From the NCBI GenBank assembly GCA_046704245.1, contig JBJKSD010000019.1:11708-75707 (forward strand): DNA of 64,000 nt, in the 5' to 3' direction. The notes below the pieces were generated by a model, which was given only the letters and a program-made list of their open reading frames with translations, searched no databases and was not told the origin of the DNA. This DNA comes from Bacilli bacterium (GTDB lineage: Bacteria; Bacillota_I; Bacilli_A; RF39; UBA660). This document shows, in pieces, positions 40,759-58,935 of this stretch. Within the stretch, counting starts at the first letter, position 1; each line of letters opens with the position of its first letter. Position numbers and translations under genes: made by a program.

Positions 40759-41472
40759 TTGTTTATGTATAAAAAAATCGTATTATTTTTCTTTTTAATT
40801 GTTTTAAATCCTCTTTTAATTAGCGCCGAAGATTGTAATTCAACTGAATTAAGTAAATTAAAAGCTTATGCCAATTCCACTGAAATAAAATATTTTCATG
40901 TAGATGATTATACTCCAACTGAAGAAGATATGAATTTTGGTACTGTTGATATATATAATTTATTTTATATATCTATTAATAATTTATTAAATAATTTTTA
41001 TGTGGTTTTAGATGATACAGGTATGATATTATCTTATGATAAATCCTTGAATGTGCCAAATGTTGCAAAAAGCGGTTATCTAGTAGGTGGTAGAGAGTAT
41101 AAATTGAGTTTTTATGCTCATGCCAATGATTCTTGTAATGCCAAGCCATTATTAACTAAAACTATTACTTTACCTTCATTTAATTATTATTCTCTTGATC
41201 CTTTATGTAAGGGATTAGAAGATTATAAATTATGTAATATTTGGTATGCAGGAGATATAACTAGGGATGAATTTGTTTCAAAAATAACTAACTATAAAGA
41301 AGGTTTGAAAGAAGATAATATAAATAAAGATTTTTCTCCTAAAAATACATGGGATATATTTATGGATTGGCTAATTCAAAATTATAATACTTTACTTATT
41401 TCCATTATAATTTTTGGCTCTATAATTATAATAATCATTAAAGCAAAGGAAAAAAGGGGGAGCATATTATGA
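40759..41472 (+). CDS. secreted, C-terminally membrane-anchored protein (first gene of the pilus/T4SS island operon)
   Basis: Signal peptide (LFFFLIVLNPLLISAEDC) and a C-terminal TM helix plus KAKEKRG. ATGA overlap with the next gene. Confidence 0.45.
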   Translation: MFMYKKIVLFFFLIVLNPLLISAEDCNSTELSKLKAYANSTEIKYFHVDDYTPTEEDMNFGTVDIYNLFYISINNLLNNFYVVLDDTGMILSYDKSLNVPNVAKSGYLVGGREYKLSFYAHANDSCNAKPLLTKTITLPSFNYYSLDPLCKGLEDYKLCNIWYAGDITRDEFVSKITNYKEGLKEDNINKDFSPKNTWDIFMDWLIQNYNTLLISIIIFGSIIIIIIKAKEKRGSIL

Positions 41473-43808
41473 GAAAATTTATTTTTATTCTTATAATTTT
41501 TAGTTTTCTAAATATTGATAAAGTATTTGCCGCGCAAGATAAGACAATTATAGAAGGTGCTGATATACGTTATGATATTGATAGAGCGGAATTAATAGGC
41601 GGTAATATTATATTAAGCGGATGGGCATTGGTCCATTACAAAGAGCATGGGCGGAATGTTAATAGTGCATATCCAAAATATAGTTTAATTCTTAAAAATA
41701 CAATAACCGGTAGCGAAAAAGGACCATACTCATCTAATTGGAATAGCTCATATTCAAGTAAACCCCCTGTACAGAAATATGATTTAACATGTACTTTATT
41801 TACTAATTTAGGTAGTCCAATTCCCACTTGTTTTTCAATATTAACCGGGACCCCATATTTAGGTGTTTCGGGTCAGGCTGGTGTAGATAAATTATTTAAA
41901 AATACAGAAAATATAGTTGATAATTCATATTATCGTAATATTGGATTTCAATTTACAATACCCTTAAATGAATTAAGCAAACAATTAGATGATAATGATT
42001 GTCCATGTAATTCAACCAAGACAAAAAAGGAAGCTAAAATAAATTATAATATGAAAATAGAAATTCAATTAGGGCCAGATAATGTAATATATAGATCTAT
42101 ACCAATTAGTATAGTTGGTAAAAATGTTGAAGAGAAATTAATAGATACTTTAACTGTGCAGAATGTTCCAGATGATGTATTAATTGAAGTACATCAAGGG
42201 AGAGTTTTACTTAATACCACTGATTTAAACCGTTTACCATTTTCTACTGCCAAAAAAAATAATCTTGGCCAATACTATATATTAACTAGTGGTGAATATT
42301 ATCGGGTTTTTGATATATTCTACAATGTTTTTGACAATTATGCATATAATAAAAGTTTAGATAACCTATACCCTTATAAGCTATCATATTATGAAATAAA
42401 AATTAAATATCCAAAAACTGGCATACAAGTAACGCGCGGAGATGAAACATCAGCTTATGTACCAGCTACTTGGGTAGTGCCAGCAAGCAAAGGTATGGAC
42501 CCCACTCAAATATCAGTTCCATGTACATGTAAAAATGTTCCTGAACCAGATGAACCCGAGGAACCTGAAGAACCAGATGTACCAATAGATCCTAATGCCT
42601 TAAGTTGTAAACCTTATCCTGGACCTATTGATTTTGAAGGTAAAGAAAAGGATTGGTTAGATAATTCAGCATGTAATATTAAATGTACTGAAACAGCAAC
42701 CGTAACTTTACCTATGAGACCTACAAGTGCAATGAGAGCTGGTACAGGCTTTGAATATAATACCAATATTGAAACGCAATTATTATGTAAGCCTAAAGTA
42801 TATAAACCTTTTGATGAAGATTATTATAAGAATTTAATTACTTTAGCTGAAGAAGCTTTAACAACAGCTGAAGAAGATGTTACTACAGCCGAAGAAACTT
42901 TAGATGCTGCTACTACAGCGGAAGAGGAAGCTCGTGATGCTTGGGAAAGTGCTTCTGATGATGAAGAAGATGCTGCTAAAGCTACTTTAGATGCCGCTAA
43001 AGCAACTCTAGATGCTGCCATAAAAGCTTTATTAGATGCTGAAATAACACGTGACTTAGCTGAAAAAGCAGTTGAAAAAGCTAAAGAAGATTATACTAAT
43101 GCTGAAGCGCGTTATAATAGAGATACTAAAACATGTAATGCATGGACAACCGATCGTAACTATAATTTAACACCAAGTCTTATAACTAGTGTTCAAGGTA
43201 AGGATTATGGGGCTCAAACTATCATTATGCAAAGAACTAATACTACTAAAACAAGTAAAGATATCTTACAGACTAATTATAAGTTTACGTATAAGTTTCC
43301 ATATATATATGTAGAAAAAAATAATGGTACAATTAGCCGGGTAGCGGGTGTTAACTATTATGATGGCGGATATAAATTCTATACTGATTTAAAAGCAATA
43401 ACTGGTAAGAATTATAATCTAGATATGGAAGTTACGGCCTTTACTACTAATGAAGATTGGAATATAAAGTATGATTGTGATTATGATGTATTTAATTATT
43501 TCCCAGTCGATAATAAACCATTATATATGTTTAGACCTATATCATTAAAGAATCCATTCCCAGGAAGAAGTCCTGGAGCTAACTGGTCTGGTTATCAAAA
43601 TTATGATTTTACTAAGAAAAATGGTAGACTATTATATGATGATAATAATATTATATATACTATAAGTTTAACTCCTGAACGTATGAAAAGTATTAAATTA
43701 TATAATAGAGATTATAGTTATGTTGAAAATGTTTTAGTTAACGGTAAGAATGCTTTTGTTAATAAAACATTTAAATATCTATTTCAACCAGGAAGGGGGC
43801 TTAGATAG
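41469..43808 (+). CDS. large secreted protein (779 aa) with a Cys-containing N-terminal region and an Ala/Glu-rich helical repeat segment; putative adhesin or pilus-associated protein
   Basis: Signal peptide (IFILIIFSFLNIDKVFAAQD) and an internal repetitive AEE/TLDAAKATLDAA segment (42830-43100). Confidence 0.45.
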   Translation: MRKFIFILIIFSFLNIDKVFAAQDKTIIEGADIRYDIDRAELIGGNIILSGWALVHYKEHGRNVNSAYPKYSLILKNTITGSEKGPYSSNWNSSYSSKPPVQKYDLTCTLFTNLGSPIPTCFSILTGTPYLGVSGQAGVDKLFKNTENIVDNSYYRNIGFQFTIPLNELSKQLDDNDCPCNSTKTKKEAKINYNMKIEIQLGPDNVIYRSIPISIVGKNVEEKLIDTLTVQNVPDDVLIEVHQGRVLLNTTDLNRLPFSTAKKNNLGQYYILTSGEYYRVFDIFYNVFDNYAYNKSLDNLYPYKLSYYEIKIKYPKTGIQVTRGDETSAYVPATWVVPASKGMDPTQISVPCTCKNVPEPDEPEEPEEPDVPIDPNALSCKPYPGPIDFEGKEKDWLDNSACNIKCTETATVTLPMRPTSAMRAGTGFEYNTNIETQLLCKPKVYKPFDEDYYKNLITLAEEALTTAEEDVTTAEETLDAATTAEEEARDAWESASDDEEDAAKATLDAAKATLDAAIKALLDAEITRDLAEKAVEKAKEDYTNAEARYNRDTKTCNAWTTDRNYNLTPSLITSVQGKDYGAQTIIMQRTNTTKTSKDILQTNYKFTYKFPYIYVEKNNGTISRVAGVNYYDGGYKFYTDLKAITGKNYNLDMEVTAFTTNEDWNIKYDCDYDVFNYFPVDNKPLYMFRPISLKNPFPGRSPGANWSGYQNYDFTKKNGRLLYDDNNIIYTISLTPERMKSIKLYNRDYSYVENVLVNGKNAFVNKTFKYLFQPGRGLR

Positions 43809-58907: not shown

Positions 58908-58935
58908 AAAAACTTGAGATATCTCAAGTTTTTTA
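58905..58935 (+). terminator. Rho-independent terminator ending the island operon (AAAAAACTTGAGATATCTCAAGTTTTTT)
   Basis: Perfect inverted repeat with flanking A and T runs. Confidence 0.6.

Follow-up and report, generated by a model that had tools for sequence, protein, structure and literature searches.

Is a dense array of pilus-like and conjugation-like genes a mobile island, two unrelated machines side by side, or a resident system of its host? This question was raised by positions 40759-58907 of a 64,000-nt stretch of DNA (hereafter the window, to which all coordinates refer unless a locus is named) from contig JBJKSD010000019.1 of assembly GCA_046704245.1, positions 11,708 to 75,707 of the forward strand. 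The source is a Bacilli bacterium of UBA660, a family of the uncultured, genome-reduced order RF39. We conclude, with a probability of roughly 0.75, that the array is a vertically inherited chromosomal operon complex of RF39, homologous to the mating-pair-formation genes of the pLS20 plasmid family, and an exapted type IV secretion system (T4SS). This probability covers the identity of the system and its evolutionary status, not its function. The "Tad-like" genes of the array are an integral, type-IV-filament-like motor module of the pLS20-type T4SS class and not a second system.

The array consisted of 18 open reading frames (ORFs), all on the + strand and tightly packed or overlapping, and every ORF listed in a preliminary description of this DNA was found at its position and on that strand. 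The window, with a G+C content of about 27%, was otherwise ordinary chromosome carrying tRNAs, gatCAB-like and aspS-like genes, SpoU, radical-SAM clusters, RmuC, BacA and a class-I aminoacyl-tRNA synthetase gene. The array and its flanking elements are as follows (L with a number denotes a related locus).

40678..40720, + strand: P1, putative promoter 5' of the first gene, ending in the extended -10 TGTTATAAT
40759..41472, + strand: A, variable 237-aa protein, N-terminal signal-like and C-terminal hydrophobic segments
41469..43808, + strand: B, 779-aa secreted adhesin-like protein, counterpart of pLS20-family Tie (SEC10/PgrA and Tie matches)
43808..44203, + strand: C, DUF5411 protein whose N-terminal hydrophobic helix is pilin-like, pLS20 gene 36 counterpart (PF17424, E 2e-53)
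44225..45043, + strand: D, CpaB/RcpC-like protein, N-terminal transmembrane segment (RcpC and TIGR03177 below cut-off; L004 orthologue above)
45072..46283, + strand: E, hexameric secretion ATPase of the CpaF/VirB11 family, pLS20 gene 37 counterpart (PF00437, E 7e-26)
46301..47194, + strand: F, polytopic platform protein, GspF/PilC/TadB-type cytoplasmic domain, homologue of pLS20 gene 38 (predicted fold, hhalign)
47194..47976, + strand: G, F paralogue in a TadC-like role, homologous to pLS20 gene 39 (hhalign)
48040..48219, + strand: H, 59-aa pilin-like protein, hydrophobic helix after a short leader M-K-x-A-T-G (conserved motif)
48237..48596, + strand: I, 119-aa minor-pilin-like protein, leader M-R-x-A-x-G-G and hydrophobic helix, weak counterpart of pLS20 gene 40 (DUF4320)
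48614..49597, + strand: J, conserved 327-aa cytoplasmic protein, degenerate P-loop-like "HAGATT" (conservation)
49646..49999, + strand: K, VirB2-like T4SS pilin, two-helix hairpin (PF18895, E 3e-3, below cut-off)
50013..50040, + strand: putative terminator hairpin directly 3' of K (11-bp stem, 4 GC pairs, T-run)
50061..50103, + strand: P2, putative promoter 5' of L, a copy of P1 by repeat comparison, also ending in TGTTATAAT
50163..50621, + strand: L, VirB2-like T4SS pilin, Sec-type signal peptide (PF18895, 25.4 bits; Mbov_0395 pilin-like, E 1.5e-3)
50652..53087, + strand: M, extended VirB6-like channel protein, coiled-coil C-terminus (sub-cut-off profile matches, hhalign)
53116..53436, + strand: N, VirB3/PrgI-like small membrane protein of 106 aa (positions 5-96 of fused Mycoplasma VirB4)
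53414..53968, + strand: O, TraC-like N-terminal domain of VirB4 as a separate 184-aa ORF (Mbov_0397 positions 94-275, E 5e-15)
53965..55752, + strand: P, P-loop part of the VirB4 ATPase, 595 aa (Mbov_0397, 360 bits)
55768..56916, + strand: Q, membrane-anchored M23 peptidoglycan hydrolase, VirB1-equivalent role (PF01551, E 4e-23)
56934..58907, + strand: R, VirD4 coupling protein, acidic C-terminal tail (conju_CD1115, 311 bits)
58907..58934, no strand assigned: palindromic, putative terminator hairpin at the end of the array (12-bp stem)

When E was searched by tblastn against 72,556 plasmids, its closest plasmid relatives were VirB11-like ATPases encoded by Bacillus plasmids of the pLS20 family and by pZB18-like plasmids of Enterococcus (31-36% identity). 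The annotated plasmid operon runs from a surface exclusion gene through Tie (778 aa), a 126-aa ORF, the VirB11-like ATPase (402 aa), two membrane proteins of 267 and 245 aa and a DUF4320 protein (120 aa) to small ORFs, VirD4, an extended VirB6, ORFs of 103 and 192 aa, VirB4, VirB8-like and VirB1-like proteins, Aux1, Aux2 and the relaxase. When the RF39 family profiles were compared with all 48 proteins encoded by the pBatNRS213 (pBat) and pZB18 operons, the best match was the positional counterpart for ten of the profiles. B matched Tie (E 3e-8; for pBat Tie, E 2.8e-8 by hmmsearch and 75% by hhalign, the latter across some 100 residues at the C-terminus), C the ORF immediately 5' of VirB11 (pBat h126, E 7e-5, hhalign 39.5%), E VirB11 (E 2e-56), F the first ORF 3' of VirB11 (E 1e-4), G the second such ORF of both plasmids (E 2e-4 and 6e-3), I DUF4320 (E 2e-3; pBat 1.8e-3, hhalign 11%), M the extended VirB6 (E 1e-8), N DUF5592 (E 5e-4), P VirB4 (E 1e-39) and R VirD4 (E 1e-71). 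Two-sided hhalign joined F to gene 38 (95.9%, E 5e-9, 207 columns) and G to gene 39 (pBat h245 and pZB18 h235; 80.6%, E 1e-5), and M aligned with the extended VirB6 of pBat at 91%. Against single plasmid sequences the hhalign probabilities of F, G, H, I, N, O, K and L were low, and only two-sided profiles were informative.

The mating-pair-formation genes of the plasmids (34, 36-40, VirB6, VirB3-like, VirB4 and VirD4) were thus found colinear in the window. The order Tie adhesin, gene 36, VirB11-like (37), 38, 39, DUF4320 (40) and small ORFs is common to both, as are homologues of the extended VirB6, the VirB3-like protein, a separate ORF for the VirB4 N-domain, the VirB4 ATPase, a wall hydrolase and VirD4. 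The preliminary description had regarded the array as a non-canonical composite, on the premise that Firmicute conjugation modules lack such a pilus-type apparatus. Since pLS20-family and pZB18 operons carry the same ATPase and platform module in the same order, relaxase included, that premise is wrong for this plasmid family and the layout is that of a known class of conjugation operon. The RF39 version differs in being chromosomal, vertically inherited and order-wide, as its chromosomal flanks, synteny, co-divergence with RmuC and codon usage indicate, and not carried by a conjugative plasmid or other mobile element. Whereas the plasmid operon includes Rel, Aux1/Aux2 and oriT, no relaxase match was obtained at the RF39 array, and no relaxase, Aux1/Aux2, Rco/Rap/Phr or surface-exclusion gene was recognised beside it. 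Its VirD4 stands at the end of the array, whereas that of the plasmids precedes VirB6; its hydrolase is of M23 type and that of the plasmids a lytic transglycosylase or C40 type; and it has clear VirB2-like pilins and a CpaB-like protein, while no VirB8-like gene was recognised in the window. In the paper that defined the pLS20 family, genes 36 and 38-41 were listed as unknown, the VirB11 was called unusual and pilus homologues were reported absent. The layout was therefore already known from plasmids; its fixation in the RF39 core genome and the platform identity of pLS20 genes 38 and 39, with their platform-and-ATPase role, were not found in the literature searched. Nor did that literature contain anything relevant on a T4SS, secretion, pilus or conjugation in RF39.

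The motor module was assessed gene by gene. For E, named earlier as a CpaF ATPase, the T2SSE domain (PF00437) confirmed an ATPase of that kind without setting CpaF apart from VirB11; its best NCBIfam matches were VirB11 (111 bits) and TadA-conjugal (98 bits), both far below their cut-offs, and among PDB entries it scored about as well with CpaF (69.7 bits) as with VirB11 (62.5 bits), the plasmid VirB11-like ATPases being closer. The CpaB-like assignment of D held at the level of the family: the window protein scored 20.3 bits against RcpC, with a gathering score of 28.8, and E 1e-4 against TIGR03177, below cut-off, whereas its L004 orthologue reached 31.1 bits with RcpC. No relevant Pfam or NCBIfam match was found for F, G, H, I or J, with Pfam tried up to E<=10, nor did ten divergent F relatives from an exhaustive profile search match the T2SSF Pfam model; sequence-profile searches of PDB with F, G, D and J also returned nothing.

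An AlphaFold2 model of F, built from a diverse alignment, showed it in prediction to be a platform protein with the GspF/PilC/TadB-type fold. The model from a shallow alignment was unusable, with a predicted local distance difference test (pLDDT) score of 53.6. The predicted fold also resembled SpoIIIAB, and a Foldseek search of PDB with the F model gave nothing significant, the top match being EpsF (probability 0.72, E 2.2). BLASTP found no similarity between F and G and hhalign with shallow profiles gave 49%, but with a broader profile the two aligned at 84.8% (E 7e-6, 212 columns), mirroring the TadB/TadC pair. The ORFs at 46301 and 47194 had been called TadB-like and TadC-like; verification with the T2SSF model of Pfam failed for both, but the predicted fold supports the TadB-like call for F.

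The two ORFs at 48040 and 48237, described as pilin-like, do have a pilin-like leader and helix but no Flp or TadE Pfam match. H and I have in common the leader M-[KR]-x-A-x-G followed by a hydrophobic helix, which is pilin-like and distinct from the Flp motif. The motif K-a-A-T-G-E-L-N-L-T-V-I-T was present in 49 of the 53 H orthologues, and the leader motif of I in 57 of 64; H had no match to the Flp model and I none to the TadE model. J, omitted from the preliminary description, was conserved in 66 loci at a median identity of 47%. It had no Pfam, PDB or ParA profile match, and hhalign with plasmid ParA gave 0.7%. A TadZ/ParA-like identity for J, to which a degenerate P-loop-like motif seen by eye had pointed, was reduced to speculation by that value. 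No prepilin peptidase (Peptidase_A24; TadV/CpaA) was found among the scanned ORFs of the window.

A type-IV-filament-like motor module of an ATPase, two platform-like proteins, a CpaB-like protein and three pilin-like proteins is therefore present and, as had been proposed, joined to a VirB4/VirD4 core. Filing it as "Tad" is unjustified, because the T2SSF, Flp and TadE Pfam models were unmatched and the window held no prepilin peptidase. With Tad pili and the type IV filament superfamily the array has in common an ATPase of the CpaF/VirB11/FlaI clade, two single-domain paralogous platform proteins of predicted GspF/PilC fold, like TadB and TadC, a CpaB/RcpC-like protein, and pilin-like ORFs of Flp size and larger. 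It differs from them in its leader (M-K-x-A-T-G / E...), in the absence of a TadZ match for J and in the position of the module inside a T4SS. The SpoIIIA-SpoIIQ channel was considered as another identity and rejected, since E scored 14 bits against spore_III_AA (cut-off 281) and Q 40.6 bits against SpoIIQ (cut-off 250). A type-IV-filament machine also cooperates with T4SS ATPases for transfer in PAPI-1/IncI (R64), where a type IV pilus is paired with VirB4/VirD4 or Dot/Icm-like conjugation; those systems differ in being diderm, mobile and relaxase-bearing, with type IVb pili that have recognisable PilB, PilC and prepilin peptidase.

The assignments of the T4SS core in the preliminary description stood, with one correction. 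VirB4 was confirmed, but as three tiled ORFs and not a single gene: against the Mbov_0397 Mycoplasma model the ORFs starting at 53116, 53414 and 53965 covered positions 5-96, 94-275 and 294-893, with overlaps of 23 nt and 4 nt between them. This division was kept in distant relatives, overlaps included, and occurs likewise on plasmids, so it is native architecture, and a reading of VirB4 as a decaying pseudogene was rejected. P scored 359.6 bits with Mbov_0397 (cut-off 590) and 169 bits with CD1110, and showed a Walker A (GTSGSGKST) and a Walker B-type motif (VDEAH); O orthologues matched TraC-like PF26593. The VirD4 call for R was secured by conju_CD1115 of NCBIfam, whose 311 bits exceed the cut-off of 250, by T4SS-DNA_transf (E 8e-55), TrwB_AAD_bind (E 5e-27) and a TraG-D_C domain, and by the Walker A motif GTTGSGKT. 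The M23 domain of Q was equally clear.

The remaining parts were upheld at family level, their orthologues scoring better than the window proteins. For T4SS_pilin (PF18895), with a gathering score of 26.6, the window proteins reached 18-25 bits (L 25.4) and an L019 orthologue 32.5; K orthologues kept the hairpin motif ...LGxxDLGKAV...KEIKAA.... The VirB6-like M matched MMCAP2_0566 (E 6e-10), Mbov_0396 (E 3e-9; 36.7 bits against a cut-off of 70) and pLS20_p028 (E 1.6e-4), all below cut-off, and its L004 orthologue matched TrbL_4. The VirB3-like assignment of N was supported by weak PrgI_like matches of its orthologues, with DUF5592 of pZB18 as its best plasmid match. The slot between VirB4 and VirD4 was modular: it held an M23 hydrolase in the window and in L006, and SpoIID with Peptidase_C39_2 (C39-like) in L037 (L037:11807-14989). 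Most RF39 loci had at this slot an additional membrane-anchored ORF of about 260 aa, absent from the window and from its closest relative L006, whose best but weak plasmid match in the 48-protein set was the VirB8-like protein of pBat (E 6e-4). Two further genes absent from the window were seen after VirD4 in other loci (L032:18089-19131; L048:18534-19160): a secreted staphylococcal-nuclease (SNase) homologue in L032 and L048, and next to it in L032 a bacterial PH-domain protein.

Of named families, those of Mycoplasma integrative and conjugative elements (MICEs; CDS5 VirD4, CDS17 VirB4) were closest to the core. In NCBIfam, the pilin, VirB6 and VirB4 found their best matches in Mbov_0395, 0396 and 0397; N, O and P, taken together, span what is one VirB4 protein in Mycoplasma, and the hosts are related (Mycoplasmatales-related Bacilli). 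VirB3, the VirB4 N-domain and the VirB4 ATPase are separate in the array and in pLS20 but fused in Mycoplasma. All scores of the array proteins, including 18.2 against a cut-off of 40 for the Mbov_0395 pilin, were below the equivalog cut-offs, so that these are the closest named families and the array proteins are not members. To our knowledge, MICEs have neither a VirB11-type ATPase nor a platform module.

To see how widely the array occurs, VirB4 was scanned in a single genome for each GTDB species. Relatives were encoded by at least 581 of these genomes, and the 80 best loci were fetched for comparison. The best 80 of at least 581 had 76-91% identity to the VirB4 of the window and came from gut metagenome-assembled genomes, including Bacillales bacterium UBA660 (91%), Mycoplasma sp. 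CAG:877, uncultured Tenericutes UMGS995 and UMGS1110 and many entries named "Bacilli bacterium". Among these best 80 loci the gene order D-E-F-G-H-I-J-K-L-M-N-O-P-(Q)-R was kept wherever the contig allowed. In many loci the array was followed by rhodanese, DedA and RmuC; in four distant metagenome loci SpoU and aminoacyl-tRNA synthetase genes lay upstream, and SpoU is upstream in the window as well, at a distance of about 11 kb. Compared with the window proteins, median identities were high for motor parts (VirB4 78%, ATPase 67%, O 66%, F 64%, VirD4 59%, G 56%) and low for surface parts (K 42%, L 38%, I 33%, hydrolase 33%, VirB6 30%), while A and B were mostly unrecognisable. Pairwise distances of VirB4 and RmuC were correlated across 38 species (Mantel r 0.83, p 0.001), with VirB4 less diverged than RmuC (0.15 vs 0.22).

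The preliminary description had called the array an island and had proposed a comparison of its composition with the rest of the genome. Codon usage of the array correlated with that of housekeeping genes at r 0.979, against r 0.974 for a split-half control of the housekeeping genes themselves, and G+C at third codon positions was 16.0% vs 15.3%; the codon usage of the array is thus native. No att-like repeats flanked it in the window, where only chance repeats within coding sequence were found, and the nearest tRNA was 7.9 kb away. Conserved gene order, common neighbours, co-divergence with RmuC, native codon usage and the lack of repeats together speak against an island and for vertical inheritance in the RF39 chromosome. 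The motor cassette also exists in more divergent lineages: at L089:7599-16449 an F-like protein of 24% identity lies in a cassette of a weak DUF5411, a 254-aa CpaB-like ORF, a T2SSE ATPase, the F-like and a G-like protein and ORFs of 52 and 135 aa, followed by a 1305-aa gene and the end of the contig.

Relaxase and integrase genes had been reported absent from the window, and none was found by Pfam among about 60 scanned ORFs, five of which had no Pfam match at all. It had also been suggested that the relaxase might lie just outside. The next 2.7 kb past the 3' end contained housekeeping genes and no relaxase or integrase, Pfam found no relaxase or integrase in ten ORFs downstream of VirD4 in other species, and Rel of pBat (pLS20-type) and MobP2 of pZB18 had no tblastn match in 1.65 Mb made up of the window and the related loci (about 80 genomes, with flanks of about 10 kb). 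Of the alternatives that had been offered, an island with an adjacent relaxase is thus not sustained, and a repurposed secretion system stays a live reading because no relaxase or integrase is nearby. The loss of the plasmid context, the lack of a nearby relaxase and the strong constraint in hundreds of species point to an exapted T4SS.

Both halves of the array belong to one system, since VirB4 and F co-diverge (r 0.83) and the VirB2-like K lies in the first transcription unit together with the motor genes. P1, upstream of the first gene, is a 43-nt direct repeat 72% identical to 50061-50103, with a sigma-70-like site with TG at 40692-40720. From these elements, the hairpin at 50013-50040 and P2 would divide the array into two co-regulated transcription units, and the hairpin may set pilin stoichiometry.

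Several observations weigh against this interpretation. RmuC is physically linked to the array, so that transfer of the whole region would give the same co-divergence. The relaxase search outside the window comprised two relaxase types by tblastn and Pfam on ten ORFs downstream of VirD4; as all searches covered the window and the loci, an RF39 genome may carry a relaxase, oriT or prepilin peptidase at another site. An intact VirD4 with a domain of DNA-binding type would suit the transfer of DNA and of protein equally, J is an unexplained component of the array, and C, H and I each match their plasmid counterparts weakly (hhalign 11-40%). The terminator-like hairpin and the second promoter-like element are also compatible with two separately used modules.

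As for function, we favour tentatively, and at slightly less than even odds, contact-dependent transfer to a partner cell in the service of the dependent lifestyle of RF39. The analogy is with Patescibacteria (Saccharibacteria), whose T4SS is chromosomal, mostly relaxase-less, equipped with VirB2-like pilins and essential for epibiotic growth. A recent T4SS review treats Patescibacteria as the sole Gram-positive-type exception with VirB2-like pilins and a lineage-wide T4SS. In RF39, too, a chromosomal, lineage-wide, relaxase-less T4SS of monoderm conjugation type with VirB2-like pilins was found in a monoderm, genome-reduced, uncultured or dependent lineage; the analogy is one of situation only. 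The differences are that Patescibacteria are another phylum, that a VirB11/CpaF ATPase with platform module is not mentioned for their locus in the literature consulted, and that essentiality was shown there. In such a machine the M23 hydrolase would open the cell wall, and VirB6, VirB3 and the split VirB4 would form a membrane channel, to which VirD4 would recruit and feed a cytoplasmic substrate. The E-F-G motor might polymerise pilin-like subunits (H, with I and C) through the CpaB-like collar into a short filament or piston. This filament, the VirB2-like K and L and the variable adhesin would then span the wall and engage the partner cell, a part that monoderm T4SSs otherwise lack.

Among other explanations, chromosomal conjugation survives best, although we consider it unlikely. 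Here RF39 donors would export DNA with a relaxase encoded elsewhere, or independently of a relaxase, as in transfers associated with Mycoplasma ICEs. VirD4 is intact (Walker A, TrwB_AAD_bind, TraG-D_C), the T4SS core is nearest to the Mycoplasma ICE families Mbov_0395, 0396 and 0397, and the ancestor was a conjugation operon. MICEs are mobile, with a DDE transposase and random integration, and their machinery has been tied to unconventional chromosomal transfers. Against this, no relaxase, auxiliary or oriT module was seen within about 10 kb in about 80 genomes and no relative of pLS20 Rel or MobP2 in the 1.65 Mb, and an order-wide retention of VirB4 at 76-91%, above the conservation of RmuC, would be more than expected for a facultative sex apparatus.

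An import T4SS, bringing in DNA for recombination or nucleotides as do H. pylori ComB and archaeal Ced/Ted, seems improbable to us. A ComB-type uptake T4SS works without VirD4, whereas VirD4 of RF39 is intact at a median identity of 59%; in T4SS families, a conserved VirD4 suits export and not uptake. RF39 has been reported to lack de novo nucleotide synthesis, and Tad pili have been linked to DNA uptake in Liberibacter. The secreted SNase-type nuclease directly after VirD4 would fit import but was a neighbour in only two examined loci (L032, L048), and the weak similarity of the ATPases to CedD and CedB consisted of generic P-loop matches far below cut-offs.

We give little credence to two independent adjacent systems, a Tad-like adhesion pilus (40759-49999) next to a minimal T4SS (50163-58907). 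The hairpin at 50013-50040 and the promoter-like element at 50061-50103 do separate two units, and the L089 cassette precedes a different, 1305-aa gene before its contig ends. Both halves, however, lie within single operons on pLS20-family and pZB18 plasmids, were colinear in every locus long enough to show both and co-diverge, while the first unit includes a VirB2-like pilin gene and one promoter-like element is a copy of the other. An ICE, or integrative and conjugative element, with relaxase and integrase just outside the window, as earlier read, has all structural conjugation genes and some unseen flank in its favour (the window being 64 kb of a 78-kb contig), but is already contradicted and highly improbable, given housekeeping genes on both sides, downstream neighbours common to loci of many species, native codon usage, no att-like repeats or adjoining tRNA, and no relaxase found in flanks of 10 kb at about 80 loci.

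The surface-protein end of the array was its most variable part. A was present in just 2 of about 85 loci and had no match in Pfam or NCBIfam. The 779-aa secreted protein of the preliminary description is B (41469..43808), which besides its counterpart Tie in pBat has a weak SEC10/PgrA surface-exclusion domain (E 3e-6) and was hypervariable among relatives. Just 5' of the array lie two paralogous ORFs of 338 and 392 aa (37965-38981 and 39464-40642) with 71-75% nucleotide identity over about 630 nt; in the second, a Pro-rich stretch is encoded by a tandem repeat of 18 nt (39638-39925). For neither was a Pfam family or a relative in the other loci detected, and both are probably variable surface proteins.

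Further upstream, the region 30077-37811 contained two radical-SAM/SPASM genes, each paired with a gene for PPDK_N/PEP-utilising domains, as well as small unannotated ORFs (34198-34602, 34719-35111) and a thioredoxin gene on the opposite strand (33349-33828). These genes may form a cluster for peptide modification that was inserted between SpoU and the array. A further radical-SAM/SPASM protein with a MazG-like end was encoded at 8563-10281. An AbiEii-type nucleotidyltransferase toxin gene (13873-14697, in region 12655-14697) was preceded by a 399-aa ORF without Pfam match, which may be its antitoxin partner. Unrelated to the array were a 2-hydroxyacyl-CoA dehydratase-like pair with a BcrAD/BadFG activase (14814-17755) and a 796-aa protein with Ig-like and beta-helix domains (20367-22757).

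RF39 is abundant in guts, being among the commonest uncultured lineages with reduced genomes in animals and humans, and its members are regarded as relying on others for building blocks. A strongly conserved, relaxase-less T4SS in their core genome is a concrete candidate for interaction with the host or with neighbours, and a target for cultivation and metatranscriptomics. A study based on KEGG orthology (KO) assigns spoIIQ, spoIIP and genes related to them to RF39, for which it predicts the formation of spores; speculatively, the M23/SpoIID hydrolases of the array, its protein of GspF/SpoIIIAB fold and its secretion ATPase could yield false sporulation calls in RF39. For the plasmids, genes 38 and 39 as GspF/TadB-like partners of the "orphan" VirB11 could explain the crossing of the thick wall and mating in liquid. 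A bolder proposal, on which we would place somewhat less weight than on contact-dependent transfer, is that RF39 may depend on a domesticated conjugation machine with a type-IV-filament motor as a core organelle for partner interaction, be it the acquisition or delivery of macromolecules or relaxase-independent genome exchange. If so, pLS20-type Gram-positive conjugation would prove to use a pilus-like motor and VirB2-like pilins, and RF39 would be a second case after Patescibacteria, and an independent one, of a T4SS as a lineage-defining and possibly essential trait in a reduced monoderm.

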